From contig JBNKUM010000101.1 of assembly GCA_050298595.1 (NCBI GenBank), positions 32,001-96,000 of the forward strand: 64,000 bases of DNA, read 5' to 3'. The position numbers were made by a program, and so were the translations under genes. This document shows positions 3,244 to 29,193 of the stretch, in pieces; the first letter of the stretch is position 1; each line of letters starts with the position of its first letter. This DNA comes from Gammaproteobacteria bacterium. GTDB taxonomy: Bacteria > Pseudomonadota > Gammaproteobacteria > GCA-001735895. The notes beneath the pieces were generated by a model that saw nothing but the letters and a program-made list of their open reading frames with translations, ran no database searches and was not told the DNA's origin.

Positions 3244-5982
3244 ATGCCAAATAGAATTGCAAGGAAGCTTATTATAGTACTGATTCTTTTCAGCTCTGTG
3301 ATAACCCTGATTATCACTGTTTTACAGTTGTACTTTGAATATGAGGATGAGATCGCCGCTGTAAACGCACACTTCGTTCAGGTTGAACGCAGCTACCTCA
3401 AAAGTATTTCAGAAAATATCTGGGAAGAGGATCCTGAACGCCTTGTTCTTCTCATCAATGGTATAGCGGAGTTTCCGGGTATTGAGTTCGTCAGGGTAAG
3501 AGACAGCGACGGAAAAACCTTAGCTAGCGTTGGGCATAGTTTAGTCCGCCAGTCGATTAAGAAAAACTATTTACTAAATTATACTTTCCGGGGTGCTGAG
3601 AGATTGATCGGGGATCTGGAAGTCGTCGCAAGCCTGTCAGCTATCTATCAGCAACTTTTCAAACGTTTTGGCATTATTCTAGCTTCAAATGCTATTAAAA
3701 CCTTGTTGATTTCAACCTTTTTATTCGCTGTCATTAACTGGTTGCTTACCAGTCAACTTGATTCGATGACTCGCTTTACAAAGAGTATGGATCTTTCTAA
3801 ACCGATGCCTCCACTGCAATTAAAAAGAGGTGTTTTCAGTGGTCGGCATGATGAAGTTGATCAGTTAGCCGACGCTCTCAATTATATGCAGAAAACCCTA
3901 TCTGACACGTTTAGTTCGCTAAAGGAAAGTGAGCAGCGTTTTCGCCAGTTAGCCGAGAATATTAACGAGGTATTCTGGTTAGGTTCTCCCGACTGGAATA
4001 AGGTTTATTATTTAAGCCCGGCATTTGAAAAATTATGGGGAATGAGATGCGAAGATATTTATGAAAGCCCGAAACGATGGATGGATTCAGTCCATGCAGA
4101 CGATAGAGAACAACTGCTAGCTGACATCCCCGGCAAGATAGAGGATATCGAAGATATTATCGACTTTAAGGCGTATCGCGTAAAACAGAAAGATGGACTA
4201 ATACGCTGGATAAAGGCGAGGGCCTACCCGATCCGTGATGGTAGTGGGCAGATAATTCGTATTGCTGGAATTGCAGAAGATATCACTGAAAGTAAACAGG
4301 CTGAAGAAGAGCTCAGAAAACTATCGCGTGCAATAGAATCCAGCTCTTCTGCAATATTCATTACTAACAAACAGGGTACCATAGAATATGTAAATCCCCG
4401 GTTTAGCGATCAAACTGGTTATAGCAAAGAGGTGGCAATTGGGAAAGCTGCTGATTTTTTGCGTTCAAGCAACGCGAAGGATTCTATCTTTGATGATTTA
4501 TGGCAAGCCATTGCCTCTGGAGAAGACTGGAGAGGAGAACTGGATAATCAAACCAGAAATGGTATGCACTTTCGAGCAAGAGTTTCAATTTCAGCGGTCA
4601 AGGATGCTCTTGGTGAAACTACTCACTTTATCGGCATTCAGGACGATGTGACTCATGAATATCTATTGACAGAGCAGCTCAACTATCAGGCCACTCATGA
4701 TGCCTTAACCGGGCTTTATAATCGAATCGAATTTGAACGAAGGTCAGAACAGTTATTTGCCAGCAGCCGAGGAAATGAGGTAGAGCATGCATTGTGTTTT
4801 ATGGATCTTGACCAGTTCAAGCTGATCAACGATACCTGTGGCCATATTGCCGGTGATGAATTATTACGTCAATTAAGCCGTGTGTTGCAGGGGGCTGTTA
4901 GACAAAATGATACCCTGGCCCGGCTAGGTGGAGATGAGTTTGGTGTTTTGATGGAACACTGTTCGCTGGATCAGGCGCATCGGGTTGCTGAATCTCTGCT
5001 CAAGAGTATCCAGGAATACCAGTTTGTATGGGAAGGGAAATATTTTCATGTCGGTGTGAGTATTGGCCTGGTTGCTATAACCCACCAAACCACTAGTTTG
5101 AGTGAGTTACTCAAACAGGCTGATGCAGCCTGCTATATGGCGAAAGACTTGGGGCGTAATCGTATTCATGAATATCACATTGAGGATAGCGGGCTAGCCC
5201 AGCGTCAGGGAGAAATGTTATGGGTAAACCGTATTAGTCAGGCGCTGGAAGAAAACCGCTTATGTTTATATGCACAGCCCATAGTGCCTTTAGATCATTC
5301 AACACAAGAACATTATGAACTGCTGGTCAGAATGGTGGAAGAGGACGGTACGATTATACAGCCGGGAGATTTTTTACCTGCGGCTGAACGATATGATCTG
5401 ATATCAAAAATTGATGAGTGGGTCATGAACAATGCATTTAAATTATTATCCACTCATGTCGAGTTTGTTGATCAAATTGACTTTATTTGTATTAATCTTT
5501 CTGGAGCATCACTAACCAGTGGGGCTTTTCTAGATTCAATCTTTATGAATCTAAATAAGGCAGGCTTTACGCCTGACAAGATATGTTTTGAAGTCACCGA
5601 GACGGTAGCCATATCGAACTTAAGTGCTGCAATAACCTTTATCAGGCTGCTTAAAGATACCGGCTTTCGCTTTGCACTAGATGACTTTGGTAGCGGCCTG
5701 TCATCGTTTGGATATTTAAAAAACCTGCCGGTAGATTTTCTTAAAATTGATGGTATGTTTGTCAAGGACATCGTGGATGACCCTATCGATTATGCAATGG
5801 TAAAATCGATCAATGAAATTGGTCAGGTAATGGGTATGCAGACTATTGCTGAGTTTGTTGAGAATGATGAAATTATGCAAAAGTTAAGACTCATCGGAGT
5901 AGACTTTGCTCAGGGATATGGAGTTGGAAAACCGCAACCACTTGAAGAACTCATTAAAAATTCTCAGACTACAGGCAGCTAA
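3244..5982 (+). CDS. Membrane sensor-HAMP-PAS-PAS-GGDEF-EAL c-di-GMP enzyme
   Basis: Two TM segments, PAS/PAC motifs, HDALTGL, RLGGDEF, ELLVR, DDFGSGLSS. Confidence 0.92.
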   Translation: MPNRIARKLIIVLILFSSVITLIITVLQLYFEYEDEIAAVNAHFVQVERSYLKSISENIWEEDPERLVLLINGIAEFPGIEFVRVRDSDGKTLASVGHSLVRQSIKKNYLLNYTFRGAERLIGDLEVVASLSAIYQQLFKRFGIILASNAIKTLLISTFLFAVINWLLTSQLDSMTRFTKSMDLSKPMPPLQLKRGVFSGRHDEVDQLADALNYMQKTLSDTFSSLKESEQRFRQLAENINEVFWLGSPDWNKVYYLSPAFEKLWGMRCEDIYESPKRWMDSVHADDREQLLADIPGKIEDIEDIIDFKAYRVKQKDGLIRWIKARAYPIRDGSGQIIRIAGIAEDITESKQAEEELRKLSRAIESSSSAIFITNKQGTIEYVNPRFSDQTGYSKEVAIGKAADFLRSSNAKDSIFDDLWQAIASGEDWRGELDNQTRNGMHFRARVSISAVKDALGETTHFIGIQDDVTHEYLLTEQLNYQATHDALTGLYNRIEFERRSEQLFASSRGNEVEHALCFMDLDQFKLINDTCGHIAGDELLRQLSRVLQGAVRQNDTLARLGGDEFGVLMEHCSLDQAHRVAESLLKSIQEYQFVWEGKYFHVGVSIGLVAITHQTTSLSELLKQADAACYMAKDLGRNRIHEYHIEDSGLAQRQGEMLWVNRISQALEENRLCLYAQPIVPLDHSTQEHYELLVRMVEEDGTIIQPGDFLPAAERYDLISKIDEWVMNNAFKLLSTHVEFVDQIDFICINLSGASLTSGAFLDSIFMNLNKAGFTPDKICFEVTETVAISNLSAAITFIRLLKDTGFRFALDDFGSGLSSFGYLKNLPVDFLKIDGMFVKDIVDDPIDYAMVKSINEIGQVMGMQTIAEFVENDEIMQKLRLIGVDFAQGYGVGKPQPLEELIKNSQTTGS

Positions 5983-5985
5983 ACT

Positions 5986-6456
5986 ATGCATGCTTCAGAC
6001 GTGATGGACCCTAATCCATCAACATTAAAACCAGACGATAGCATTGAATATGCAGTTAAATTCATCAGGGATAAACGCTACCGTAGTTTGCCCATAATTG
6101 ATGATAATGGGTGTTATATAGGCATGTTTGGTGTTAATTGCCTGATTAAGCAGGTCATCCCAAAAGCCGTGTTTATGCATCGTGGGCTAGAAAATGTCAG
6201 CTTTATCCATGAGTCTCTGGATGACCTGTATGATCGTTTTGCAGCTGTAAAGGATGAGCCTATTATAAAGTGCATTAGCATGGATATAAAATCGCTTAGC
6301 CCGGACACGCCGCTTACTGAAACCTTACTGCAATTATACAATACACAACTCAGTATTCCTGTGGTTGAACCAGGTAGTAATAAGTTATTGGGTATGATTT
6401 CCTACTGGGATGTAGAGCATAGAATACTTCAGGCTGGATTAAAAAGGCATGACTGA
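5986..6456 (+). CDS. CBS-domain pair protein
   Basis: SDVMDPNP...SLPIID and SIPVVE...LLGMIS repeats. Confidence 0.85.
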   Translation: MHASDVMDPNPSTLKPDDSIEYAVKFIRDKRYRSLPIIDDNGCYIGMFGVNCLIKQVIPKAVFMHRGLENVSFIHESLDDLYDRFAAVKDEPIIKCISMDIKSLSPDTPLTETLLQLYNTQLSIPVVEPGSNKLLGMISYWDVEHRILQAGLKRHD

Positions 6457-7786
6457 CCTTAATGCAACTGATGTGATTTTTGGTCTATCTCCAGTCTGGG
6501 TAGCGAGTAGTATCTTTGTGCTGAGTTATATCATGATAGTGACTGAGCGACTCAACCGAGCTGTCATCTCCATGTTTGGTGCTGCTATCATGATTGTTAG
6601 TGGCGTATTAAACCAGCAGGCTGCTTTACAGGGTGTGGACTTTAATACGATAGGCCTGCTCACTGGTATGATGATAATTGTTGCCGTTACTCGTGATTCG
6701 GGCGTGTTTCAGTACCTGGCCATTCGTGCGGTTAAGTTGGTCAAAGGCAAGCCATGGGGCATTCTGGTAATGCTGATGATAATTACCGCATTATTATCAG
6801 CATTACTGGACAATGTGACTACTGTACTTTTGATAGCACCAGTAACCCTGCTGATTACCGATACGCTCAAATTAAATGCCTATCCCTATCTATTCGCCGA
6901 AATTTTTGCTTCAAACATCGGGGGTACAGCTACCCTGATCGGAGATCCACCTAATATCATGATCGGATCGGCAACCGGTCTTGGATATAACGACTTTCTA
7001 TTCAACCTGGCTCCAATCTCCATTTTTATCTTGCTGTTGACTATGTTGCCGATTTATTTCATCTGGGGCAGGCACTTAACTACTACACCAGAATTAATCA
7101 AAAAGGTCATGTTATACAGAGAAAATGATGCAATAAAAGATGTTGTATTGTTGAAAAAATCATTGTTTGTACTGACTCTGGTGATGATGGGCTTTATTTT
7201 GGGGCATGATTATGGTTTACATGCAGCAACGATTGCAATGTTAGGAGCAGCATTGTTGTTAACGCTTAACTGTCTACCACACAATGCCGAAACACAGACG
7301 GAAATGGTCACAGAGTCTCTTAATGAGATAGAGTGGGTGACCATCTTCTTTTTCATCGGCCTGTTTATTCTGGTTTATGGTCTCGAAATAACCGGCCTAT
7401 TGGAGATGCTGGCCCATCAGGTTATGGGGCTGACGGGTGGTGATATCACCGTCACAGCTCTATCAATCTTATTTGTCTCGGCTACGGCTTCGGCAATAAT
7501 CGATAATATCCCTTTCGTAGCGACCATGATCCCGTTAATCAAAAATATGGCTGCTGGTTTAGGGGGCACAGAAGAATTAGTGCCACTCTGGTGGTCACTG
7601 GCTTTGGGTTCCTGTCTGGGGGGGAATGGTAGCCTGGTAGGGGCCAGTGCCAACTTGATCGTTGCAGGTTTTGCAGAACGCTCGGGGCAGCCCATCAAGT
7701 TTTTGCCTTTCATGCTGATTGCATTTCCGATGATGCTGCTATCTGTACTTATCAGTAGTGTGTACGTTTACCTGCGCTATCTGTAA
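6449..7786 (+). CDS. ArsB/NhaD (P-protein-like) family ion transporter
   Basis: Multi-TM; LDNVTT, SNIGGTATLIGDPPNIMI, DNIPFVATM, LGGNGSLVGASAN. Confidence 0.88.
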   Translation: MTDLNATDVIFGLSPVWVASSIFVLSYIMIVTERLNRAVISMFGAAIMIVSGVLNQQAALQGVDFNTIGLLTGMMIIVAVTRDSGVFQYLAIRAVKLVKGKPWGILVMLMIITALLSALLDNVTTVLLIAPVTLLITDTLKLNAYPYLFAEIFASNIGGTATLIGDPPNIMIGSATGLGYNDFLFNLAPISIFILLLTMLPIYFIWGRHLTTTPELIKKVMLYRENDAIKDVVLLKKSLFVLTLVMMGFILGHDYGLHAATIAMLGAALLLTLNCLPHNAETQTEMVTESLNEIEWVTIFFFIGLFILVYGLEITGLLEMLAHQVMGLTGGDITVTALSILFVSATASAIIDNIPFVATMIPLIKNMAAGLGGTEELVPLWWSLALGSCLGGNGSLVGASANLIVAGFAERSGQPIKFLPFMLIAFPMMLLSVLISSVYVYLRYL

Positions 7787-7797
7787 TCGTTACTCAT

Positions 7798-7830
7798 AAA
7801 AAAGGGGCGGTCCAGCCGCCCCTTTTATTG
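7798..7830. terminator. Bidirectional rho-independent terminator
   Basis: AAAAAAGGGGCGG-tccag-CCGCCCCTTTT between convergent genes. Confidence 0.85.
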
Positions 7831-7848
7831 TGCTAATAAAAAGGTGAA

Positions 7849-10077
7849 TCAGCCGCGAGCAGAATCCAGCAAACTATTGAAGGTTTGACTAGGGCGCATG
7901 ATGGCTGACATTTTCGCTACATCAGCATGGTAGTAACCACCGATGTCAACCGGCTTACCCTGGACTTTAGTCAACTCATCCACAATGGCTTGTTCATTCT
8001 CTTCCAGTGCTTTCGCCAATGGTTTGAATTTCGCCTGTAGCTCTGCATCTTCAGTTTGTTCAGCAAGAGCCTGAGCCCAGTACATCGCCAGATAAAAATG
8101 ACTGCCACGATTATCCAGTTCTCCGGTTCTGCGAGAGGGGGACTTGTTATTCTCCAGCAGTTTACCCGTAGCACTATCTAAGGTATCAGCCAGAATTTTA
8201 GCCCGCGCATTGCCAGATTTAATATTGATATCTTCCAGAGATACGGCAAGAGCGAGGAATTCACCTAAGGAGTCCCAGCGTAAATGATTTTCCTCTACCA
8301 ACTGATCAACATGTTTAGGCGCGGATCCACCTGCACCGGTTTCAAACAGGCCGCCACCGGCCATTAAAGGAACTATCGACAGCATCTTGGCGCTGGTGCC
8401 CAGCTCCATAATTGGAAACAGGTCGGTGAGATAATCGCGCAGGATATTACCAGTAACAGAAATCGTATCCTTGCCACGGATAATGCGTTCCAGCGAGTAA
8501 CGCATGGCACGTAGGGTAGACATGATATGGATATCGGTTCCTGTCAGGTCGTGATCCTGCAGGTACAGCTTAACCTTTTTAATCAGTTCAGCATCGTGTG
8601 GGCGATACTCATCCAGCCAGAAAACGGTAGGTATGCCTGATTGCTTTGCACGAGTCACAGCCAGTTTGACCCAGTCCTGAATCGGCGCATCCTTGGTCTG
8701 ACACATGCGCCAGATATCGCCGGTTTCAACATTTTGTTCGATCAGGACCTTACCTTCATCATCTACTATACGAGCAACCCCATCAGCAGGAATTTCAAAG
8801 GTTTTATCGTGCGAGCCATACTCTTCTGCTTTTTGCGCCATGAGACCCACATTAGGTACTGTACCCATGGTGGTTGGGTCAAAAGCGCCATTGGTTTTAC
8901 AGAAGTTGATGATTTCCTGATAGATGCGCGCATAAGTGCTTTCTGGAATGACGGCCTTGGTATCTTTAAGTTTTCCATCCGGCCCCCACATCTGGCCTCC
9001 GTTACGGATCATGGCAGGCATAGAGGCATCAACGATCACGTCATTAGGTGCATGCAGGTTAGAGATACCTTTAACCGAGTCAACCATCGCCAGTTCTGGG
9101 CGTGACTGATAACAGGCATGGATATCTTTTTCAATTTCATCACGGAATGAGCGTGGCAGGTCTTCTATTTTTTCATACACGCTGCTAATGCCATTGTTCG
9201 GATTTACGCCCAGCTTATTGAAAAGATCGCCATATTTTGCGAACAGGTCTTTGTAAAATACCTTAACCGCATGGCCAAAAACGATAGGGTGGGAAACCTT
9301 CATCATGGTCGCTTTAACGTGTAGTGAAAACATCACGCCGGTTTCACGCGCGTCTTCAAGCTGTTCTTCGAAGAATTTTTGCAGGGCTTTGGCGCTCATG
9401 AACATGCTGTCGATGATTTCGCCTTTTAGCAGAGAGGTTTTTTCTTTTAGGACAATGACTTTGCCGTCTTTGGTTTCCAGCTCCATACGTACGTCACAGG
9501 CCTTATCCAGTGTCAGGCATTTTTCGCTGGAGTAAAAATCTCCGCCGCGCATATGTGCCACATGGGTACGTGAAGCAGGGCTCCATTTTTCCATAGAATG
9601 AGGGTTTTTACGTGCATAGCGCTTTACTGCAGGGGGCGCGCGACGATCAGAGTTGCCTTCGCGTAGCACCGGGTTAACAGCACTACCCAGAATCTTTGAA
9701 TAGCGCTGTCTGATGGTTTTTTCTTCATCTGAAGAAGGCTCTTCAGGAAAATCAGGGATATTAAAACCCTGAGACTGTAATTCGCTGATTGCATTGATCA
9801 ACTGGGGAATAGAAGCACTGATATTGGGTAGTTTGATGATATTGGTATCGGGCTCCTGGGTAAGTCTACCCAGTTCATCCAGGTCATCGGGCACTTTCTG
9901 ATCATCATCGAGATAGTCAGAGAATTCAGCCAGAATTCTTGCTGAAACCGAAATGTCTTTCGTCTCTAATTCAATATCAGCAGCTGAAGCAAAGGTTTCA
10001 ATGATGGGTAAAAAAGAGCGAGTCGCCAGCAGAGGGGCTTCGTCCGTTAGAGTATATATTATTTTCGAATTAGTCAT
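7849..10077 (-). CDS. icd: Monomeric NADP-dependent isocitrate dehydrogenase
   Basis: 742 aa; [34 protein letters not shown]. Confidence 0.96.
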
Positions 10078-16695: not shown

Positions 16696-16772
16696 CGGGG
16701 TGTAGCTCAGTCTGGTAGAGCACTGTCTTCGGGAGGCAGGGGCCGGAGGTTCAAATCCTCTCACCCCGACCA
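16696..16772 (+). tRNA. tRNA-Pro(CGG)
   Basis: CGGGGTG acceptor stem pairs with CACCCCG-A-CCA; D-arm GCTCAGTCTGGTAGAGC; anticodon arm CTGTC-TTCGGGA-GGCAG; GGTTCAAATCC T-loop. Confidence 0.97.
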
Positions 16773-16831
16773 GTTTAAAGAGCAAAGTAGTTTCAGTTAT
16801 ATCTAATCTAATCTAATCGAAGTCAAGATGA

Positions 16832-17045
16832 GAAGACGTGCCATGTAAGTTAGCTTCAGATCAATAGCTCAAGGATATACCCATAATAACAGGCACCACC
16901 AAGATCATTTAGCGATTACGATAAGAAGGGTGTAGAGAGAGATGGAGCGATGGCAAAAGCCTACCTTAGTGGGCTCTATAAAATTGAAGCAGGTTGGGGA
17001 GTATTTTAGGTGCAGCTATATAACGGTAAGTTGGGCTGTAAATGT
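16832..17045 (+). pseudogene. C-terminal relic of a Y1/RAYT-like transposase (HTH tail)
   Basis: EDVPCKLASDQ*LKDIP ... SDYDKKGVERDGAMAKAYLSGLY(fs)LKQVGEYFRCSYITVSWAV resembles the C-terminus of MARPLRIEF-type transposases. Confidence 0.65.
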
Positions 17046-17365
17046 TTATAATACCTTACATTTAACTGTAATAAATAAGTATTGGGTCCCCAGAATCCTA
17101 CACCTTAAAAACATGAATTGATCAGAGTTCCCCTAATCAATAGTAAGTCTAATATCTGCCGACTGTACTCATTTAAGGTTTATTAATGATTGATTACCGA
17201 GTCATCCATATTCAGAAGTTGTCGGTCACTTAGGAGTCCTTGTGCCGCCATTTATTACAGGTCCCTGGGAGCTATAGAATCTTGACTGGATTTCAGAGAA
17301 TGATATTGGCAGATAGGTCTTTGTATACTTCTTTTACCCTCTATTGGTCATCTGAAGATCCATTT

Positions 17366-18625
17366 TTACAGTTCAGGTATTTTATCTAACCAGGCCTGAA
17401 AATATGTAGATCGAACTATATGATTTGTATTTTCAGGCCAACGTCGCAGAATTTCATGCTTAATTTGGTTTAGACGGTAGAGTGTTTCACGAGCCATGGA
17501 CTCCATTTCCATAAGTTCATCCCTTGAGTCTCCAAGTTGCTCAATTAGTGAGGGTGCCTCATCAGGTTTTATACCTGAGCTGGAAATTTGTAAACATAAA
17601 GCATTGATCTGATTTTGCGCGAACTTAAATGCGGCCGATTTTTGATCGACCTGACTGGAAACTGATTCATTAAAAAACTTATAAATATTTAAAATTACTG
17701 CCCAGTTATCGCGTAGTTGCTCTTTGTTTAATGTCTCCGTCGGACTGTCGAGGGTTTGCTGTTGTTTAAATAATGCGACCATTATCTTGATCAGCGACGC
17801 GTCCAACTTCCCTCTATTGGTTTTGATACTGATAATGAGTTGATTCCAATCAGGGGTGCTCTTACTTTGTTCAAGTAGAGCTACAGAAATGTCGGCAACG
17901 GCTAGAACTCTGCCATAGAGACTTAACTCGGAAATACCGCGGGGGTATCCTGAACCATCCAGCCTTTCATGATGCTCAAAAACAGCGAGTGATACTTCGG
18001 GTTTATATTCTGGGAACTCTTGCAGAATCAGATGAATTATTATGGGGTGTGAGTAGATCTGGCGCCTGAGCTCTGGCGTTAGCCGGGTTTGTCGATCTGT
18101 CAGTGTGGGGTCAATATGCATTTCTCCAAGGTCATGAAAAAGACCTGCAGTAGCTAATTTAATTAATTGATCTTCAGCCAGTGATTTTTCAGTACCGAGG
18201 AAGAGAGATGCCAGTGAGGTGCAGATTGAATGTCGAAACTTTTCTGGCGCCTGAGAACGAGTGATGGTCAACTTATTAGACATGGTACAATTTAATGGTA
18301 TTTTTTTGAAAATACGAACTGCAAGTTTTGGGTCACTTAATGTACGGGCAAAAAAACCAATGTTGAAATCGGAATCTATCAATTTCTCAAATTCTTCAAC
18401 GAGAGTGATATTAGATACGCTATTTTCAATTTTTAAACTGTTATCTATTGGTTTTAAAAGTTTATTTTTGAGAAGTTTCTGATACACGCTTTGGTTGATT
18501 TTCGCGCCGGAAGCTAACAGTTTTACTCCTCTTTCATTGTATATGTCTTCGGTCGTTGAAATATTTAAAGACTCTGATGCGCCTATCAGATTTTTGATGT
18601 AGTTATGACTATCCTGTTCGGACAT
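17366..18625 (-). CDS. HD-GYP domain phosphodiesterase-like protein
   Basis: GLFHDLG, HP, HHERLDGSGYPRG, LAVAD. Confidence 0.9.
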   Translation of the reverse strand: MSEQDSHNYIKNLIGASESLNISTTEDIYNERGVKLLASGAKINQSVYQKLLKNKLLKPIDNSLKIENSVSNITLVEEFEKLIDSDFNIGFFARTLSDPKLAVRIFKKIPLNCTMSNKLTITRSQAPEKFRHSICTSLASLFLGTEKSLAEDQLIKLATAGLFHDLGEMHIDPTLTDRQTRLTPELRRQIYSHPIIIHLILQEFPEYKPEVSLAVFEHHERLDGSGYPRGISELSLYGRVLAVADISVALLEQSKSTPDWNQLIISIKTNRGKLDASLIKIMVALFKQQQTLDSPTETLNKEQLRDNWAVILNIYKFFNESVSSQVDQKSAAFKFAQNQINALCLQISSSGIKPDEAPSLIEQLGDSRDELMEMESMARETLYRLNQIKHEILRRWPENTNHIVRSTYFQAWLDKIPEL

Positions 18626-19030
18626 TAGATTACCTGTATCACTAGTCGTAGTAATTATTCAATTATGGGTGGTCGGTAATACTAACTAGCCTAAAAAATA
18701 CTATAGTCTAAGTTCACGCCAAGAAATTTAATGTGACGAAGTGGCAATAGGAGAGCGATTTATAAGTATTTAAAAAGTATAATCCGCCATTTTATGCCTC
18801 CGCCTATCTCATTATAATTTTGCTATTTAAAGATGTCCATCTAATCAAAACTAACTAGATTCATGTGTCTCCCCTTATCTGTAGTTACCTACAAGCTATA
18901 GGGAATGACTCAGATGGGTCGTCCTGATCCAATACAGTTATTATCACGCGGAATATTTCAAATTTGATCTCTATTAAAAATGAATTCCATTATTGAATGC
19001 TCTTTATATTTAGCGCTAAATAATCACCAG

Positions 19031-22000
19031 CTAAATAGCTTCCAGTTTAGTAATAAGTGAGCGGAATGCCTCACAATGACCATCGATTAGCTCATAGGGA
19101 AACATAAAGACCGGATCAATATTTGGCACTGCTCTCTTTAGCTGAAAATAGTAATCGATAATCGCTTCACTTGAGTTGTTCTCTGCACCGAAACCAGCTA
19201 AATCCACTATTCCTATGGTTTTCCTGATATCCTTAGTAAAGGCGATCATGTCGACAACCTTCAAAGGGTCTCCAACGACAATGTCTGTACGAATATCTAT
19301 ACTTTGTGTCTGTATGCGCCTCAGAGCCTCCTTTGTTCCGCGTTGGCCTGAACTATTTAACGCAAACTTTAACAGGCTTAGAAATAGCGATACATTCTCA
19401 TCACTAACCGCACTTTGTTCTGAATCACTATTTTGCTGCTGTCGCAACAATGCTTGCGAAAGATAGTGGGTAATATTTGATCGCCTATGCTCTAACTGTT
19501 CAAAATTGCGGTGAAGAAAGTGAAAAGCTTTCTTTTTGGGCCTGCTCATGAGTACATTAAGCTCACCTTTGCGCTTGTCTTCATCGTCACCCTGCGAAAA
19601 TGCAGCGAGATTATAACGAGTGACATCCCATAGATAGAAGATATAATCTCGCTCCTTTCCTTGCAGTGCGGCGCCGGCTCCGTCAAGCAAAACTTCACCA
19701 CGTTTTAGCTTATTCAGAAGTTTGTCTTTTACGTGCTTGATATAGGGTTCATTTTTCATCAAAAAATAACATAGTGCGACATCGGTATCTATGTTGATCT
19801 TCTTGCCGCTAGTTGTTTCAATCTCTGCAATGGAGCGCTCTACGTAATCCATAAAGCGATCTATCATTTGTGTTTCGATGCCTTTAAATTTTCCGCTGGT
19901 TGCTTTTTTTGACGTTTCAACCTGAAACTCACTGGTATCCACCACTACAGGGCAGGGATGTTCCGGCAATCGCCACTGCATAACCTTCAGTTCATCCTCA
20001 TAAACATATTTATTCGAAAACTCTATAATCTCTGGTGGACAACGGTAGTGCTCATCTAGCATTACCGAAGCCTGCTTTATAGATTTAACTAAGGCAAATA
20101 TATGAGACCCGCCGCCTTTAAATCCGCGCGCTTGTGTAGATCTTAAGTGTTCGTCCAGTTCATGGTCTTTAAATAGATAGTCGTCAGTACTCGAATTCTT
20201 TTGTAATACGGTCTGTTTGTCATCACCGACAACCAGGAGTTTTTTTGCTCGAAAAAGCAATGACATGGCATCATCAACTCGACACTGTGTCGCTTCGTCA
20301 ATAATGACCAAATCGAAGGATTGTTCTTTACAGGGCAGCAAAAAAGGTACTACCTGTTTGCGTACAATCCAGATTGGAAATGTTTCGTAAAGAGCTTCTT
20401 TAAACTCATCAAAAACTGCTCCGCTTTTTGGTATCGAAGAAAATTGCTTTAGATCCTCTATTAGAGCCATGATTCGAGTCGAGGCATCGGTTCCGCTACT
20501 GTGCTTAGTTGTTGTAGCGTGTTGTGCTATTTCATGTAAACAAGCAACTAAACGCTCGTAAACTAATTGGTCTCGCTGCTCATACACCTTGGCTATTTTT
20601 TCCAGATCACTTTGAATTGAAGTGTGTGTGTTGCTTGCTGCACTGTTAAAATTTCTAGATACGCTGAAAAACAATGCCAGGGCCTGATTAGGACGATCAT
20701 TAAGCCGAATGGATTCGTGGATCTCTCTTAACAATTTCCATAAATCAGCTGAGCAGCTTTTGGAGAATTTCAGTATTTGGACCTGATTGTTCACCATCTC
20801 TAATAAAAGCTGAGCCTGCCTTTGCAGTTCACTGCGAAATCCTATGCGTAATTTCTGTTCTACGCGTGTTAAGACTCTCCTGGATTTTAGGAGCTGTTCT
20901 TCAAATACTGTTTCAAGGTGGCGAATCAATTCGTGTCGCATAGATGTTCCGAGTAATTCGAGAAAATCCTCTTTAGACTCGATCATAGATTTTGATAGTT
21001 TCGAGAGAATCGAAATATCACCTTTTAAGATTGAAATGTCTTCGTTTGTGCGAGATGGATCAGCGTTTACCGATGAAAGATTGAAGTAACTGTAACACTG
21101 CTCCATGTTAGCTTTAATGAGTTGTCTTCGGTTGTTGATAAAGTTAGAGATCAAGGTGCGATGTTTATTTTTAGAGTCGAGCAGTATTTCTAAAAACTCA
21201 ACTAGACTGGAAGTATTTGTCTGAAATTCATACTTGTGAGGCTCAATATTTTCAAAAGGTAGGTCACTGCCCATATGGAGAGACAGTTTATTATTAATAG
21301 TGGCGTCCAATTGAGCTAATTGTTGATCTAAAGTCTGAAGTTTTTTTTCAATGTTTTCACGGATGTTTATCGTACCCACGTTACTGGTTTTAAGGGGTTT
21401 AACCAGTTTATCGAGTACCTCAGTTAGATTGGTATTATTAACATCTATTTCATCAACTATTTTGATAGCGTTGAATAGCAGATCGTTATGACTCCTACCG
21501 CTAGAGTGTCCATTGCGCTCGCTCGAAAGATATTGCTGAATCTTTTCTACTAAAGCTTCTATTGCACCTTTTTGATCACTAACAATGAGTGCACGTTTTT
21601 TATTGCAAATACACTGAAGCAATAAATTCATTATTGTGTGTGTTTTGCCTGTACCCGGTGGCCCCTCAAGCAGCAGCAGGTCATGGCATTGAAGTCGTTC
21701 AAATAGTTTACGTGTGCTTTGCGGTAGTCTGCCGGGGACCCACGTCAGATCATCTAACCAGGTATCATTATGTGTCTTAGCTGTAAGTTCAGGTGTCAAA
21801 AATCTGCCTAATAAAGAATCGTAAAATCGATTCATCTTTTGATGGGCAATATGATGAATGCGATCAAGATCGTGTTCGAGCGCCTGATCGATCGGTGCTT
21901 GTAGCTTGGGGGCGCGATATAAATTAACACTGAACAAATCACATTCAACACCATTGAACTTAAGACCACCAAGTATTCCTCCTAAGCCATTTTCGTCGGC

Positions 22001-23284
22001 GTAGCCAAATAAAATCTCGCGTGTTCTATCAAAAATATCATCCTTGACAGGAAGATGTCGGGTCAGGCTGATGCGATCGTTGAGTTGATCAACACTAATA
22101 TGCTGTGCTAGTAAAGTATTGAAAAAATCGTCAATGGGGTCGATACCCGTCCGCTTATTAGAAAATTTTTCTACCAGATGAGCTAGTGCCAGGTGATTTA
22201 AATATATACGACCGTCTTCTGTAGATTCAAGATGTATGCCACGCCCAGACTCGCGAATGCGAATGCGTATATAGTAGAGTGGAAATTGAAAAGTTTTAAG
22301 TGTCTTTTTTATGGTAAACAAACTATCTACAATTTCAAAACCGAGGTAAAAATCGCTGGTTCGGTCGCCGATAAACTGGCTTCTAAACTCACTGGAACGC
22401 TGTGCATCTAGCTCGAAGTAAAATCGACCTTCATTAAAGGCTTTTATTTCCTGCGTTGTTAAGGGAATAGAATACTGTAATAAGGGCGCTTTACTTTTTG
22501 AGTCTTGTGAATTTTCACTTTCTTCCTTCAGGCCGAGTAGGACTTTCCTGTCACCAAAAATTTCAGCGTAATCAACTCTGATGTCTTTTTCATGAAAACG
22601 CTCTCCTAACTTGGGCTGATAGTAATCCCCTCCAGCCTTTGACTTAGTTGATGGGTTATTCTGGGGTGGCGAGGATGGTGCTTTACTGATTGCATTTTTT
22701 TCATTACTGGATAGCTTCTCGGCCAGGTTCGGGCGATAATTCGTAATCCTTTGCAGTACATCCTTGCGCAAAGAAAGATCGCTAGTAATACTTTTGCTAC
22801 CCTTCACAAAACTGAATTGAAATAACTTGTGATAGGAAATAATGCTTTCTAGAACGTCGTTAGGATGTGCAAGTGCGCTGTTATAAAGAAGTGCATCCAG
22901 GGCATTAAGACTGCGTCGGCCAACAGTGATGTAACCAGAAGACCCAGAACGTTGTTCAATATCCTGAATAATAAGATTATCCAAATCCATTCGTGATGAT
23001 TTAAAATAAAAGTATTCGTGATTGGAAAAATTTACAGATCGCTCAAGCGGCGTGAGTGATTTAGCCGTTTTCTGTTCAATATATATTTCCCTTACACAAG
23101 CGCGAAATTTACCAAACACAAAACGGGGAACAAAAATTTTTCGCTTTTCACTGGTGTTTTCCAGGGCATAGACATAAAAACCATGATCATTTTTTATACA
23201 ACTGATACGAAATATGTTTTTTCTGTCAGCGCGTTTAGTAAGACTCTTTGGTTTGGTTCTGTGCTTAAAAAGTTTATATATCAT
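19031..23284 (-). CDS. Large SF1 (UPF1/DNA2-like, AAA_11/AAA_12) helicase with a DUF4011-like N-region and a possible degenerate Vsr/REase-like C-terminus
   Basis: GPPGTGKT, IIDEATQ, VVGDDKQ, LDEHYRC, LQGKERD, LNVLMSRPK; FYLGF...FPLYYIRI...LN block before motif I. Confidence 0.85.
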   Translation of the reverse strand: MIYKLFKHRTKPKSLTKRADRKNIFRISCIKNDHGFYVYALENTSEKRKIFVPRFVFGKFRACVREIYIEQKTAKSLTPLERSVNFSNHEYFYFKSSRMDLDNLIIQDIEQRSGSSGYITVGRRSLNALDALLYNSALAHPNDVLESIISYHKLFQFSFVKGSKSITSDLSLRKDVLQRITNYRPNLAEKLSSNEKNAISKAPSSPPQNNPSTKSKAGGDYYQPKLGERFHEKDIRVDYAEIFGDRKVLLGLKEESENSQDSKSKAPLLQYSIPLTTQEIKAFNEGRFYFELDAQRSSEFRSQFIGDRTSDFYLGFEIVDSLFTIKKTLKTFQFPLYYIRIRIRESGRGIHLESTEDGRIYLNHLALAHLVEKFSNKRTGIDPIDDFFNTLLAQHISVDQLNDRISLTRHLPVKDDIFDRTREILFGYADENGLGGILGGLKFNGVECDLFSVNLYRAPKLQAPIDQALEHDLDRIHHIAHQKMNRFYDSLLGRFLTPELTAKTHNDTWLDDLTWVPGRLPQSTRKLFERLQCHDLLLLEGPPGTGKTHTIMNLLLQCICNKKRALIVSDQKGAIEALVEKIQQYLSSERNGHSSGRSHNDLLFNAIKIVDEIDVNNTNLTEVLDKLVKPLKTSNVGTINIRENIEKKLQTLDQQLAQLDATINNKLSLHMGSDLPFENIEPHKYEFQTNTSSLVEFLEILLDSKNKHRTLISNFINNRRQLIKANMEQCYSYFNLSSVNADPSRTNEDISILKGDISILSKLSKSMIESKEDFLELLGTSMRHELIRHLETVFEEQLLKSRRVLTRVEQKLRIGFRSELQRQAQLLLEMVNNQVQILKFSKSCSADLWKLLREIHESIRLNDRPNQALALFFSVSRNFNSAASNTHTSIQSDLEKIAKVYEQRDQLVYERLVACLHEIAQHATTTKHSSGTDASTRIMALIEDLKQFSSIPKSGAVFDEFKEALYETFPIWIVRKQVVPFLLPCKEQSFDLVIIDEATQCRVDDAMSLLFRAKKLLVVGDDKQTVLQKNSSTDDYLFKDHELDEHLRSTQARGFKGGGSHIFALVKSIKQASVMLDEHYRCPPEIIEFSNKYVYEDELKVMQWRLPEHPCPVVVDTSEFQVETSKKATSGKFKGIETQMIDRFMDYVERSIAEIETTSGKKINIDTDVALCYFLMKNEPYIKHVKDKLLNKLKRGEVLLDGAGAALQGKERDYIFYLWDVTRYNLAAFSQGDDEDKRKGELNVLMSRPKKKAFHFLHRNFEQLEHRRSNITHYLSQALLRQQQNSDSEQSAVSDENVSLFLSLLKFALNSSGQRGTKEALRRIQTQSIDIRTDIVVGDPLKVVDMIAFTKDIRKTIGIVDLAGFGAENNSSEAIIDYYFQLKRAVPNIDPVFMFPYELIDGHCEAFRSLITKLEAI

Positions 23285-23929
23285 TTATCTAACCAGCAAA
23301 GAAACGCGTCGATTTCTAGCGCGTGCGTCCCTAAGTTCTTTACCTCGCATACCCTTGGTGTCTACCACAGGTCGCGTGTCGGCATAACCAATTACACGGA
23401 GTCTGTTTGAGGAAAACCCGAGATGCATTAAATGAAGAATGACGCTACTAGCGCGCTTACCGCTCAGGCTCCAATTGGTTACAGTTTCGCCATCGATTAT
23501 TCTGTAGTAGGCGACGTCATCGGTATGACCTTCGACATCTATAAGATAATCCGTAGCAAGGATTACTTTGAGTAATGGGTTGATGGTGTTAAGTACGTCG
23601 TTCTTAATTACTGATTTACCTTGATCAAAAAAAATGTTGGTATCCAGATCAAGGCGTACACCATCGCTATCCGAGTGAACTGATGCACCGGGCACACCCG
23701 GTTGTCCTTTAATGATTTTATCGAGTGATTCTGTCAACTCAGCTAATGTATCCTTATTACTGCCACTCATCGCACTTCTAATCATTTCGAACGAGCCTAC
23801 TTCTATATTACTCATAGTCAGTAGCATCACGAAAAATACACATAGAATTACCATTAAGTCGCCGAAGCTTATGTAAAAAGCATCTAGCCCCTCGTCGTGT
23901 TTTTCTGTTGTTAATTCGTCAAGATTCAT
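23285..23929 (-). CDS. MotB/PomB-like stator subunit with OmpA-like peptidoglycan-binding domain
   Basis: TM FYISFGDLMVILCVFFVMLLTMS with conserved Asp; VEGHTDD, NWSLSGKRA, GYADTRP, RNRRV. Confidence 0.9.
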   Translation of the reverse strand: MNLDELTTEKHDEGLDAFYISFGDLMVILCVFFVMLLTMSNIEVGSFEMIRSAMSGSNKDTLAELTESLDKIIKGQPGVPGASVHSDSDGVRLDLDTNIFFDQGKSVIKNDVLNTINPLLKVILATDYLIDVEGHTDDVAYYRIIDGETVTNWSLSGKRASSVILHLMHLGFSSNRLRVIGYADTRPVVDTKGMRGKELRDARARNRRVSLLVR

Positions 23930-24732
23930 TTAGCAGATTCCAGTTTGACATTCATTGTCACTGGATTTAGACGCCTGTTTTCTCTTTGTAAAAGGATATT
24001 AACTCGATTCATGAGCAACTTATGCGTTTCGACATAAAGTGTATTGTGATTTTCTAAACGACCGGCAAGTGGAGTAAATATCAGGGAGCCCAGGATCGAG
24101 CCGAAGGCAGTCGTCATCAGTGCCAGTGACATGGCGGGGCCTATCATTGACGGATCATTTAAGGACTGCAAAACTTCAATCAAACCAATGACTGTACCAA
24201 GAAGGCCTAAGGACGGAGCAATTTTTGCTCCTTTGTTTAGTAAAGAGACTGTGACTTTTTGTGTTAAATAAATACTAGCGACTTTATTTGCGATTAATTC
24301 CTCAATTTCTTCATAGAATAATTTTTCTTTTGCCATATGTACAATGTCATTGAGCAATTCGCCAGTAATCTCATCACCTGTGCGTAAACTAAATATGCTA
24401 TCTCCTGTAATAATAATTTCATCTAGCTCGTTAATCTGTGCAGTCACCGCATTGATTGGATTAATAAAAATAGAGCGAAAAGTGTGAGTTATTACCTGTA
24501 AAAATACGGCAAAATTAAACTGAAAAAGAAGGCACGCGAAGGTTCCGCCTAATACAAAGAAAAAGCTACGCAAATCTTTATATAATATCTCACTAGCTTG
24601 ACCGTTTTCGGCACTGAATCCCACAGCAGTCATAAGCGCCGCTATAAGCAGACAGGTGCTAACTAAAACCGATATAGGATCAATAATGTTTTTAGGTGGA
24701 GATAGATATTTATTTTCTTTCAGGCCATTCAT
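23926..24732 (-). CDS. MotA/PomA-like ion-channel subunit (MotA/TolQ/ExbB family)
   Basis: SFFFVLGGT; APSLGLLGTVIGLI..L..L.DP..IGPAMSLALMTTAFG....P...RL. Confidence 0.9.
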   Translation of the reverse strand: MNGLKENKYLSPPKNIIDPISVLVSTCLLIAALMTAVGFSAENGQASEILYKDLRSFFFVLGGTFACLLFQFNFAVFLQVITHTFRSIFINPINAVTAQINELDEIIITGDSIFSLRTGDEITGELLNDIVHMAKEKLFYEEIEELIANKVASIYLTQKVTVSLLNKGAKIAPSLGLLGTVIGLIEVLQSLNDPSMIGPAMSLALMTTAFGSILGSLIFTPLAGRLENHNTLYVETHKLLMNRVNILLQRENRRLNPVTMNVKLESAK

Positions 24733-24757
24733 ACAAGCTTCTCACAGTCGTTCTTTT

Positions 24758-25867
24758 TTAATCAGTAGATGTTGGTTTATCAATATTCGCCAGCTGATTT
24801 CGTCCTATGTCATATACCACTAGCTGCTCTTGTATTCCTCTTTTGTAGACACTCGTATCAGTACCGGGAAGCACAGAAAATCGGACGATGTAACCATCTA
24901 CTACGGATATCAGTATTTTCATTCCTCGCCGCAAGGATTTAATAGTTGCCTGCTCCATTGGATTGACGGCCATTATTTGAAAATCGTTTCGCTTTGAGTC
25001 ACGAGCCTTAAAAGTATCGTCCTCAACATAAAGAAGATCTGCTGTTCTTTTTTCCAGGTTTGCCATTTCAGCGTTGTCAAAAAATAATATACCAATTGGG
25101 ATGTTATCGTCTTCATCAAAGGTAATAAGACAACGTGATTTAAAACTCGGAACACGATCAAGCATGTGGGTTGGAATATCAATTAATTTTTTTAGTGATT
25201 TAACCTTTACGATACGCCGTTTTAGATCAACGTGTTCTACGCGACATATTTTAGTATTCGCCGGAAGCAAATCCGATGAGTTATTAGCAATCGCAGCCTG
25301 GCTGGCAGCCATTTTTTCGGCAATAAGCTGGTCAGTCAACAGACTTACCTGTTGCATTAGGGATTTGTTTTCAGAGGTAAGTTTCTCTACTACTTTCGCT
25401 AATGATTTATTCGATTTTAATTCTTCACTATGCCCCTTTTGCAGAAGTTCAGGGCCATATTTTTGCGATTGATGCCTGGCGATTTCGTTGTAAAAGCTTT
25501 GCAGGATGGTCCCGATACGATTTTTTTCAGGCAATTCGAAGCGGACACATGGCAAATATTCACTCACGTCTAATTCAGTCGAATTAGATGACGGATTTTC
25601 GGTGGCTTTTGCACGAATTGAGAACACAAAACTATCCAGGCAAGATAAAATATTTTCCAGATTTGCTACAAAGCCATGGGCTTCAAGTACAGTGCATATC
25701 GTTGTGACAGGATTTGAAAATAAGACTTTATCAATGGTTACGTAGAAAAACTTCTGATTTGTTTCATATTCCACGGCTGATAGATCGAGATTGAGTGACG
25801 CCTTACTTAGATTCGCCTCACTTGATTGCGATATGACTGTTAGTTTCTCTTTATCAAAAAAGACCAT
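24758..25867 (-). CDS. Hypothetical cytoplasmic protein with central coiled coil; first gene of the stator-helicase operon
   Basis: 369-aa ORF, no signal or TM; heptad-like segment LAKVVEKLTSENKSLMQQVSLLTDQL; ends 25 bp before the motA-like gene. Confidence 0.75.
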   Translation of the reverse strand: MVFFDKEKLTVISQSSEANLSKASLNLDLSAVEYETNQKFFYVTIDKVLFSNPVTTICTVLEAHGFVANLENILSCLDSFVFSIRAKATENPSSNSTELDVSEYLPCVRFELPEKNRIGTILQSFYNEIARHQSQKYGPELLQKGHSEELKSNKSLAKVVEKLTSENKSLMQQVSLLTDQLIAEKMAASQAAIANNSSDLLPANTKICRVEHVDLKRRIVKVKSLKKLIDIPTHMLDRVPSFKSRCLITFDEDDNIPIGILFFDNAEMANLEKRTADLLYVEDDTFKARDSKRNDFQIMAVNPMEQATIKSLRRGMKILISVVDGYIVRFSVLPGTDTSVYKRGIQEQLVVYDIGRNQLANIDKPTSTD

Positions 25868-26353
25868 TGTTTAATTCTTGCTCATTTTAGCTATGAAAAA
25901 ATTATGAAATCCATTTATCTCACTTTCACTTGCGTTAATATTTGCAGCCGCGCTTTATAATTTTGTCAAATGATCTCGTCATAGCACGTATCACAGAACA
26001 GCTGCAACAAACAGTCTTAAAACTATCGGCGAAGCATCAGTAAATCAAGAGAATCGAGTGTCCTGTGAGAAATTTTGCAAAATATGTCATCTACCAAAGT
26101 AATTATTTCAATCTCAAAAGATCTTTGGTAGCTGTCTTAAAAACGGTTAGTTAGATTAAATGCGACTTCATTTTATGGAAAAGATAGCGCCTCAGCTTCT
26201 TGAATAACAATAAACTAAAAATTATATTGTATTGTTGTAATCATTCTTATTGCCTTTCACGAATTGTTTGCTGGAACTGCGTTTTAGTGTAGTAGTTTTT
26301 TGTCTACTGAGGATCAGTTCTCTTTATTAATTTAAAAAATACAAACAAAATAC

Positions 26354-26399
26354 GTAGAGGACTGCGCGGATAGCGACGTAACGATCAGCGTAGTCCTCT
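26354..26399. repeat. GTAG-led REP-like hairpin
   Basis: GT-AGAGGACTGCGC...GCGTAGTCCTCT inverted arms. Confidence 0.5.
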
Positions 26400-26724
26400 G
26401 GGTATTTTGTCTTAGAGTTGCTATGTCTGTATTACCTCGCCTTGCCGAGGCCTATGAGAGAAGCCCTTAGCGAAACATTATTATCTGTGCGGACAAACAC
26501 CGCCAGTGCTATGGCAGCAAATCCGCAACAGGAGTGTAAGAGATGTACTGTATTGACAAAGTTAAACGTATGCCAGAAGGCGAGCGTCAGGCTTGTCAAA
26601 TCTTTTGCCTGCCTGAGCGATCTACGGCTCTTGCAAAAATCAGGTTTCTGATAATTATATTAATTGTTATGAATGGCATGTTCGATCGGGGGTGTCTGTA
26701 GACAATAGCAGATGGAGTGTCTAA

Positions 26725-26994
26725 ATGATTTCGTATAATACCAGGTCACATCCCCGCTTATATTATTTAAACTTTGATTTCCAACTGATTTACATATTAA
26801 GTGGCTGTGGCGAGGATAATGTAGTACCCAGCGACACTGATCCGGCACCGATCCCAACAGGAGTTCCAACACTGACCAATCAGCTGCCGAGGGCCCGGAT
26901 CACTGCACACGGGAACTCCATCTCTGGACAGATGGTCACCCTGTATGGCTTCTTCTCTGAGTTGTCGCGGTTGAACCATGAAAATCCAGAATAA
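26725..26994 (+). pseudogene. Probable lipoprotein fragment (PKD-like start)
   Basis: ILSGC lipobox, Pro/Thr linker, NQLPRARI...SGQMVTL; ends prematurely. Confidence 0.35.
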
Positions 26995-27280
26995 TATTTT
27001 TGGTTACTCTGACTGGAAGTGGAACAGGCCATCTAATGCCTGGTATTCAATCTATGTTTGGGATCATTATGCCTATACTTTGGATTCCGATTCAGAAAGT
27101 ACTTGCTAAGTAATAAGACTTTGATACAGGTCAGTGTGTTTTGATGCCAGATTTGGATGATGTTTAGTTTTTGAGATTTGAGTGGAAGATTTGAGCAGGT
27201 GTCCTGTCAAGTTTAGTGGTGTAGTTTGTGAGTGGGCGGTTTGGTGGCTTACTTAGTTTTTTAGCGCTTAGTTATCCAGG

Positions 27281-28654: not shown

Positions 28655-28757
28655 TTAGTCACCTTGACAGCCCCAAAGCAACCAATTTATTACAATCCAT
28701 TCTGGAGACAGAAATGGGCTAATAGTAACTATTGATCCGGCGATGCACCGTCCTTTC

Positions 28758-29193
28758 AACCTGGAATCCGCAGTTGGACGAGTTGAAGTGCGTTTGAAGT
28801 GGTATAGATCAAGGCGTGACGACGCGGAATAGCCAGCTATTCCAGGGAGTTACAAAGCTTCCGCATCCTGCTCACGCCCCTTACCTATGTCCCTATAGGC
28901 AACGTGTCCCTATAGGCAACGTAGAGATACGCCGCCTCAAACGTGCAATTAAGCTCGTAGTGGGATTCACCTGCTGGGTTTTCAGGATGGCTGCTGTTAT
29001 TTCGCGAATGCATGGACGTAGGTGGTAGGGCGAAGCACGACTCCAGGGAGGGAGGAGGTAGGGCGAAGCAGGATGCCTGAGCCGAGGAAGCCAGAGCTGA
29101 TGCATAGGAGCGTGAATAGATAAACCGACTGTTATGCCCTACGAAACAGTGGGTTACCATCCAACCCGGGCGGTCAACTGCGGAATCTTGGTT
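28758..29193. mobile_element. Composite MITE-like element (about 436 bp) with nested repeats
   Basis: TIRs AACCTGGAATCCGCAGTTG / CAACTGCGGAATCTTGGTT (16/19 match); internal hairpin GGAATAGC-ca-GCTATTCC; tandem TGTCCCTATAGGCAACG x2; GGTAGGGCGAAGCA x2. Confidence 0.7.

Follow-up and report, generated by a model that had tools for sequence, protein, structure and literature searches.

Genes and proteins of the cassette

The analyzed stretch of DNA (hereafter, the window) comprised 64,000 nucleotides (nt) of contig JBNKUM010000101.1 from the genome of a gammaproteobacterium (assembly GCA_050298595.1), and a unit of four genes, referred to here as the cassette, was located on its minus strand at positions 19031-25867, with all open reading frames (ORFs) arranged head to tail. 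In order of transcription, the unit consisted of a gene for an orphan protein (gene 1, 24758..25867, 369 amino acids), motA, coding for a MotA/PomA-like A subunit of a stator (gene 2, 23926..24732, 268 amino acids, PF01618), motB, coding for a MotB-like B subunit (gene 3, 23285..23929, 214 amino acids, MotB_plug and OmpA), and a gene for an Upf1-like (DNA2/NAM7-type) superfamily 1 (SF1) helicase (gene 4, 19031..23284, 1417 amino acids, AAA_11 and AAA_12). The three junctions were read directly: 25 nt separate the stop codon of gene 1 from the ATG of motA, motA and motB overlap in the sequence ATGA, and the ATG of the helicase gene abuts the TAA of motB. A preliminary description of the window, in which the unit was considered a candidate Zorya-like anti-phage system, had reported the same coupling, and had placed the genes in an accessory region beside a tRNA-Pro gene, away from flagellar, Tol and TonB genes. 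These points were corroborated. The tRNA-Pro gene lies at 16696-16772 (the sole Rfam match), no flagellar, Tol or Ton motor genes were found near the cassette, and the cassette MotA was the sole MotA_ExbB match on the contig of 176 kilobases (kb). The accessory character of the region was supported by base composition, as the guanine-plus-cytosine (GC) content of the cassette was 0.400 with respect to 0.450 in the genome, a value at percentile 4.4 among 1621 windows of the same size from the genome.

The cassette MotA has four transmembrane (TM) segments and a cytoplasmic domain of PomA length between TM2 and TM3, and ends approximately 40 residues past TM4, without a long tail. It matched PF01618 (MotA_ExbB) in Pfam with an E-value of 4.5e-19, and its best NCBIfam matches were MotP (7.5e-28) and PomA (8e-24), with TolQ (5.8e-06) and ExbB (3e-03) far behind; scores fell far short of the NCBIfam equivalog cut-offs (97 vs. 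394 bits for MotP, 84 vs. 341 bits for PomA). No PADLOC model was matched at E ≤ 0.01, and no Zor family was present among the NCBIfam matches. Identity to the PomA and MotC-like proteins of the same genome was 25-26%, and the alignment with this PomA was nearly gapless over the entire TM2-TM3 cytoplasmic domain. Both the motif APxxGxxGT (including P173) and P221 were invariant. In addition to these shared features, the N-terminus is prolonged by a conserved, basic stretch of 17 residues, and the last approximately 40 residues form a distinctive tail. In a small tree, the cassette MotA was placed together with PomA/MotC opposite TolQ/ExbB (98/98 split), this split being the only one used from a poorly resolved topology with long branches.

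In the cassette MotB, a single TM segment is followed by a plug, and a short linker leads to a peptidoglycan-binding domain of OmpA type (Pfam matches to MotB_plug, 6.5e-09, and OmpA, 9.8e-12). The NCBIfam matches were MotD (1.5e-30; 107 bits vs. a cut-off of 283 bits) and MotS (7e-23). PADLOC ZorB1 was also matched (1.3e-14), yet the same ZorB models matched ordinary OmpA proteins at 1.7e-15. The predicted ion-binding residue Asp24 (codon at 23858..23860, minus strand) was invariant in all ten aligned sequences and aligned with the TM Asp of the PomB and MotD-like proteins of the genome. The OmpA-type motifs NWxLSxxRA and NRRV were likewise invariant, while the periplasmic linker was approximately 60-70 residues shorter than in the PomB of the same genome. 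Based on these sequence features, the MotA/MotB pair looks like a flagellar-class stator outside the flagellum.

The product of gene 1, a cytoplasmic protein for which no match was obtained in Pfam, PADLOC, NCBIfam or PHROG, has a coiled coil at its centre (residues ~140-195, 25283..25450 on the minus strand), flanked by an N-terminal (residues ~1-135) and a C-terminal domain (residues ~200-360). The family comprised 132 clusters at 50% identity, of which approximately 88 were full length, and N69, E71, N72, P113 and Y126 were invariant across 42 diverse members. Only the coiled coil produced matches: profile searches of PDB retrieved coiled-coil designs, prefoldin and bZIP proteins, considered as noise, and Pfam searches at E ≤ 1 over the 42 members retrieved coiled-coil families only. 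Comparison with a 22-sequence FliG alignment (hhalign) revealed no similarity (Prob 0.5%), and no fusion containing the orphan protein was detected.

The helicase matched AAA_11 (3.7e-15) and AAA_12 (4.1e-06; 26.9 bits, slightly below the 27-bit cut-off) in Pfam, and combines these domains with the Walker A, Walker B and SF1 motifs that define Upf1-like (DNA2/NAM7) helicases. In an alignment of 12 sequences, which included one Oligoflexales protein and one member with only 41% identity, Walker A (GPPGTGKT; G541-T548, with Lys547; 21641..21664), Walker B (DEATQ; Asp996-Glu997; 20294..20299) and the motifs VGDxxQ, HYRC, QGKERD and SRPK were invariant (all positions on the minus strand). The sole PDB match of the protein was SMUBP-2/IGHMBP2 at the P-loop (1.3e-05). 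The N-terminal region (21725..23284, minus strand) comprises two highly conserved orphan domains, residues 1-215 and 216-520, with mean column identities of 69% and 75%, respectively. Profile searches with both domains gave no PDB match, and Pfam searches of the region at E ≤ 10 gave no match except a chance-level one to CHASE6_C; residues 1-520 matched this helicase family only (128 clusters at 90% identity, listed at 1104-1503 amino acids and mostly at 1370-1503). The C-terminal domain (residues 1285-1417, 19034..19432, minus strand) was strongly conserved, with D1339, D1345, D1361, D1377 and Q1381 invariant; it had no match in PDB or Pfam, and its stand-alone homologues were fragments only. 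A six-frame search of the whole genome for DUF559/MTES_1575 (PF04480, PF18741) gave no match, and hhalign comparisons of the helicase C-terminus with MTES_1575 and DUF559 gave Prob values of 1.6% and 3.4%, the register being plausible and the similarity not significant. Since neither these families nor DUF4011 were matched, the nuclease-like effector invoked in the preliminary description was left unproven, and a nuclease activity of the Asp-rich C-terminal domain would be a guess.

Co-inheritance and distribution of the cassette

A total of 185,579 species genomes were searched with the orphan protein, and then with a profile built on the cassette MotA. The MotA profile retrieved 57 loci, 55 of which contained a MotA 39-67% identical to that of the window. 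Among these 55 cassette-type loci, the orphan gene was found upstream of motA in 54, motB followed in 53 and the helicase gene came next in 50; every missing partner corresponded to a contig end, and the sole locus without the orphan gene began 81 nt before motA. The remaining two loci belonged to metagenome-assembled genomes (MAGs) of Marinamargulisbacteria, with a MotA of 32-33% identity, and contained motAB only. The order described for the window is conserved across genomes, and the four-gene arrangement is far beyond chance, because it recurs wherever contigs allow. Under the same restriction, the cassette-type stator is never found without the helicase. An occurrence of homologous motA/motB pairs mostly in flagellar clusters or without the helicase, named in the preliminary description as a finding contrary to its proposal, was not seen, relatives of MotA at 39-67% identity being always accompanied by the orphan gene and the helicase gene. 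Moreover, pairwise identities of the four proteins (medians of 58-69%) co-varied over 17 loci, with Spearman coefficients of 0.78-0.94, which shows joint inheritance and is not proof of physical contact.

The cassette is independent of flagella. The genome of the window codes for a PomAB of its own that scores above the NCBIfam cut-off, for a second, MotCD-like pair, for TolQ and for several ExbB paralogues; its single FliG is encoded on another contig than the cassette, and there are no flagellar genes on the 176-kb contig of the window. FliG was present in the 13 genomes of the same genus, none of which carries the cassette, while a carrier genome with 97% completeness (G021) contained the complete cassette and no match to FliG_C or FHIPEP. 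At one locus, from Pleionea (L007), flhA, flhB and fliR were located 7-10 kb from the cassette.

In addition to its absence from the genus (0/13 genomes), the cassette was found in only one of 36 genomes of the family and in none of 400 genomes sampled across the phylum. Based on this rarity and on its low GC content, the cassette was horizontally acquired in the genome of the window. In the order of Oligoflexus (Oligoflexales), on the other hand, 42 of 95 genomes contained the orphan protein, and the positives were bunched in the genome listing (38 of 46 consecutive rows vs. 3 of 41 and 0 of 7, the row order being unexplained). At the Oligoflexales loci examined, the cassette was situated among genes for ATP synthase, polA, lepA, gltB and sufB, with flanking genes common to sub-lineages, a sign of vertical inheritance at a constant site, while flanks differed at every gammaproteobacterial locus examined. 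The overall distribution looks like long vertical retention in Oligoflexales with occasional export to Gammaproteobacteria and Myxococcota. Culturable carriers include Oligoflexus tunisiensis, Microbulbifer rhizosphaerae, Pleionea sediminis and Exilibacterium tricleocarpae. Cassettes of gammaproteobacterial or Oligoflexales type were also present in MAGs (L036, L041, L101 and L120) that carry the labels Bacteroides, KSB1, Haliangium and Polynucleobacter, as a result of either real long-range transfer or binning errors.

Comparison with known systems

Searches of PADLOC v2.0.0, NCBIfam r20 and Pfam did not assign the four-gene unit to any named system. This is in line with the preliminary description, which had not recognized the combination as a described Zorya type and had regarded a match to an already named system as an argument against its proposal. 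Full-text literature searches yielded no description of a module combining MotAB with an SF1 helicase; members of the clade may be contained in supplementary tables, such as that of the 379 stator homologues of PMC12505986.

The nearest parallel in organization is Zorya type I (ZorA-ZorB-ZorC-ZorD), also a four-gene operon in which a motor of the MotAB superfamily is combined with cytosolic proteins including a large helicase. Its B subunit shares with the cassette MotB a TM Asp, a peptidoglycan-binding domain and a short periplasmic connection, and both systems stand alone. According to PMC11946911, ZorA has, in all Zorya subtypes, a long helical tail in the cytoplasm, placed after its MotA-like membrane domain. 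In contrast, the A subunit of the cassette, with 268 amino acids, lacks this tail and matched no PADLOC ZorA model. ZorB is characterized by a TM Asp, no plug and a linkerless peptidoglycan-binding domain; the B subunit of the cassette has the Asp and a short linker together with a MotB_plug match, and is scored higher by MotD and MotS than by ZorB. Rather than ZorAB, the motor resembles most closely the flagellar stators PomA/MotP and MotD/MotS. Differences extend to the partners: the helicase is of the SF1 Upf1-like type, whereas ZorD is SNF2-type; no relative of ZorC, ZorE, ZorF or ZorG is encoded (no Zor model except ZorB gave matches); the gene order is orphan-A-B-helicase; and a defence-island context is lacking. 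Of three features that characterize Zorya, the ZorA tail and the type-specific effector set are absent from the cassette, and the third, ZorB, gives a mixed picture.

Flagellar stators are set apart, as stated in PMC12505986, by an expanded cytoplasmic domain, a plug with linker and an OmpA-homologous anchor, and PomAB, MotPS and MotCD are classified there as 'FIT, TGI4'. At the sequence level, the characters of this class were found in the cassette (alignment of the TM2-TM3 domain, plug and OmpA domain). These stators provided the best sequence matches and share with the cassette the prolines equivalent to P173 and P221 and the Asp of the B subunit, in addition to plug and anchor. The cassette pair differs from them in the low identity of MotA (25-26%), the 17-residue N-terminal extension, the distinct C-terminal tail and the shorter linker, as well as in being always joined to the helicase, in never lying within a flagellar cluster, in scores below the equivalog cut-offs and in the absence of the flagellar gene set.

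Regarding the helicase, the best matches were defence helicases, namely PDC-S37 (7e-23), MkoC (1e-20), ProA (4e-20) and Hhe (6e-16). The matches to this group (PDC-S37, MkoC/MkoA, Hhe, ProA and PLuB) were confined to the core, with 110-310 aligned residues and 42-78 bits, NCBIfam cut-offs for ProA, Hhe and PLuB being 999-2000 bits; for example, residues 983-1101 aligned to positions 931-1041 of the 1550-position PDC-S37 model. The cassette helicase shares with the defence SF1 helicases (Hhe, ProA, Mokosh MkoA/MkoC, PDC-S37 and PLuB) an AAA_11/AAA_12-type core, a size above 1100 amino acids and a large insertion separating the two Walker motifs, but its N-terminal 520 and C-terminal 130 residues are orphan, and it lacks DUF4011, PLD and Vsr-type domains. 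Its relation to DUF4011-helicase-Vsr proteins of Hhe type, mentioned in the preliminary description as defence-associated, was rejected (57 bits vs. a cut-off of 2000, only the core aligned, no DUF4011 at E ≤ 10 and no DUF559/MTES_1575), as was identity with Mokosh, PDC-S37 or ProA, given the partial matches of 110-310 residues to models of 1136-1903 positions. By its motifs, the cassette helicase is a member of the Upf1-like superfamily; it belongs to none of the named defence families.

Possible function and genomic surroundings

Considering these results, we infer that the four genes may code for one machine, a Zorya-like, envelope-gated helicase with an immune role, to which a probability of approximately 0.4 is assigned. 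In such a machine, MotA and MotB would form an ion-driven flagellar-type stator in the inner membrane, presumably with a 5:2 stoichiometry, anchored to peptidoglycan through the OmpA domain of MotB. Since the motor residues are intact, ion conduction and rotation are expected of this stator. The plug and the very short linker suggest that the unit is normally closed and unable to reach the wall; release of the plug and anchoring would await a change in the membrane-to-wall distance or in a partner protein. A similar short-linker logic is proposed by the authors of the Zorya study (PMC11946911), with the ZorB unit closed and unanchored until the wall distance changes. Upon opening of the channel, ion flow would turn the MotA ring, whose PomA-like cytoplasmic face, together with the N- and C-terminal extensions, may engage the orphan coiled-coil protein. 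With no tail of ZorA type available, the extensions of MotA and the orphan protein would be the natural candidates for carrying a signal to the helicase, the orphan protein acting in trans in place of the tail and recruiting or releasing the helicase at the membrane, with the N-terminal 520 residues of the latter as the likely docking part. The helicase could then unwind or strip entering nucleic acid (phage, plasmid or other foreign DNA or RNA), which the Asp-rich C-terminal domain might also cut.

Several results weigh against an immune role. No nuclease domain could be shown in the helicase, and two of the four proteins (MotA and the orphan protein) match no defence model. No copy of the cassette turned up in 72,556 plasmid records, 50,697 phage records or IMG/VR contigs. 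The enrichment in defence islands, which the preliminary description had proposed to look for, was not observed in the flanking ORFs examined (188 at 20 loci and 20 in the window): a clear defence neighbour, a NERD-UvrD protein at L007 (3e-37), was present at one of the 21 loci, the other PADLOC matches were cross-hits of rpoD, dnaG, ksgA and OmpA proteins, and no defence-island signal emerged. Flanks consisted mostly of housekeeping and metabolic genes (rpoD/dnaG, metG, pgi, ppc, the ATP synthase operon, polA, lepA and sufB). In addition, with the orphan protein in 42 of 95 Oligoflexales genomes, the distribution there resembles lineage retention more than the patchiness of defence systems. 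The defence flavour of the cassette is, on the whole, mixed, consisting of helicase matches that are best to defence types over the core only, of recurrent nuclease neighbours and of the parallel with Zorya.

The same machine might instead serve a non-immune function retained within a lineage, with Oligoflexales/Myxococcota as its home and occasional transfer to Gammaproteobacteria, the ion motor powering or gating the helicase in the service of the cell itself; the uptake or processing of nucleic acids at the envelope, from the environment or from prey, RNA decay at the membrane, or an envelope-linked role in DNA repair or segregation would be examples. This main rival is considered possible though doubtful. 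The clustered positives in Oligoflexales, the core-gene neighbours with flanks common to sub-lineages, the strong conservation of all four proteins and the lack of defence-island enrichment argue for it, as do secreted-type Endonuclease_NS genes adjoining the cassette at two loci (L003 and L118), while the accessory nature of the cassette in the lineage of the window (0/13 in the genus, 1/36 in the family), with its low GC content, the lack of consistently linked transport, competence or repair genes and a helicase core nearest to defence helicases argue in the opposite direction. Moreover, no DNA-uptake or RNA-decay pathway is known to use a MotAB stator.

A module of a mobile or selfish element, serving the transfer, maintenance or exclusion of that element, would account for the patchy occurrence in Gammaproteobacteria, the low GC content, and such genes at single loci as a transposase (L003), an HNH gene (L005) and, just downstream of the cassette, an integrase fragment (L033), and it could explain identities of 52-59% across MAGs labelled as very different taxa, a pattern that binning errors could mimic. 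This explanation is improbable, given that the cassette has no constant neighbour coding for an integrase, a relaxase or replication, that flanks differ at every gammaproteobacterial locus examined, and that the cassette is missing from the plasmid, phage and IMG/VR records, without tRNA-derived direct repeats in the window. Even less credible, and largely refuted, is an alternative flagellar stator with the other two proteins as motility clutch, brake or assembly factor. The family matches (MotP, PomA, MotD and MotS), the plug and OmpA domain, the position on the PomA/MotC side of the 98/98 split and the proximity of flhA, flhB and fliR at L007 speak for this idea; it is countered by scores far below the equivalog cut-offs (97 vs. 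394 bits), by the PomAB and second pair already present in the genome, by flagellated relatives of the same genus devoid of the cassette, by the absence of FliG_C and FHIPEP matches from G021 and of flagellar genes from the 176-kb contig, and by an orphan protein unlike FliG (hhalign Prob 0.5%) and an invariant link to the helicase.

Whichever function applies, Zorya is the known case of a MotAB-family motor wired to nucleic-acid enzymes, and signalling from its motor to its effectors is still debated. The cassette would be a second, independent solution, built from a compact, tail-less stator of flagellar type, a separate coiled-coil partner and an SF1 instead of an SNF2 helicase, and its comparison with Zorya would show which features are essential for motor-helicase coupling. 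It would also provide a test case for stator evolution, as a plug-bearing, OmpA-anchored, PomA-like unit working without a flagellum. An immune role would make it a new defence system of marine and sediment Gammaproteobacteria that is common in Oligoflexales, whereas a non-immune one would point to an unknown envelope-coupled process involving DNA or RNA. A wider evolutionary scenario, to be regarded as tentative and rather unlikely, is that a torque-generating stator of flagellar type left the flagellum and was rebuilt as the engine or gate of a helicase, with the ion-driven rotary motor mechanically coupled to a nucleic-acid translocase by a dedicated coiled-coil adaptor, the machine being kept across much of Oligoflexales and exported to other phyla. 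If true, this would break the rule of current stator classification by which a flagellar ion transporter implies a flagellum, and would place a second, independently evolved motor-plus-helicase machine beside Zorya.

Among the neighbours of the cassette at other loci, nuclease genes recurred without being constant. The NERD-UvrD helicase gene of L007 (6653-8668) lies immediately upstream of the cassette, a position occupied by NERD-domain genes at four Oligoflexus loci (L126, 5729-6778; L124, L129 and L131), and Endonuclease_NS genes were located near the cassette in L003 (2614-3336) and L118 (5702-6727). A different, second stator-like module was found directly upstream of the cassette on a MAG contig (L039:452-8545, minus strand), with genes for proteins of 804 amino acids, 339 amino acids (MotA_ExbB, 3e-15), 199 amino acids (MotB_plug, 5e-10), 723 amino acids and 206 amino acids; its large flanking proteins had no Pfam or PADLOC match. 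Proteins combining OmpA and DUF4398 were encoded beside the cassette in L001 (17064-18608) and L005 (1450-2853), with a mutual identity of 28%, and an OmpA-like protein of 612 amino acids was encoded upstream of it in L037. In a gammaproteobacterial MAG (L033), the phage-integrase fragment downstream of the cassette spans 17005-17658, and a PLD-family protein and a VWA plus AAA pair are encoded upstream (4337-8014).

Within the window, gene 1 is preceded by a non-coding leader of approximately 550 nt, which contains a promoter-like site (25901..25929, minus strand) 34 nt upstream of the gene, recognized by consensus match only (9/12 positions). Low GC values (0.36-0.42) extend over 16773-27280, from the tRNA-Pro gene to a GH16-CBM2 gene. 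An HD_5-domain gene (17366-18625, GC 0.395), not linked to the cassette at other loci, lies between the tRNA-Pro gene and the cassette. No integrase was found in 16773-27280, nor was a direct repeat of the tRNA-Pro end, as expected of an attachment site, found in the window; a 20-nt inverted match to the tRNA end (85%) inside gene 1 was taken as chance. The right flank gave no alignment with same-genus genomes except for a dispersed repeat, so that insertion borders could not be defined. This intergenic repeat (28755-29000 in the window, ~100-250 nt), which looks like a repetitive extragenic palindromic (REP) or miniature inverted-repeat transposable element (MITE) type, had 27 matches in the genome of the window and 27 and 44 matches in two genomes of the same genus.

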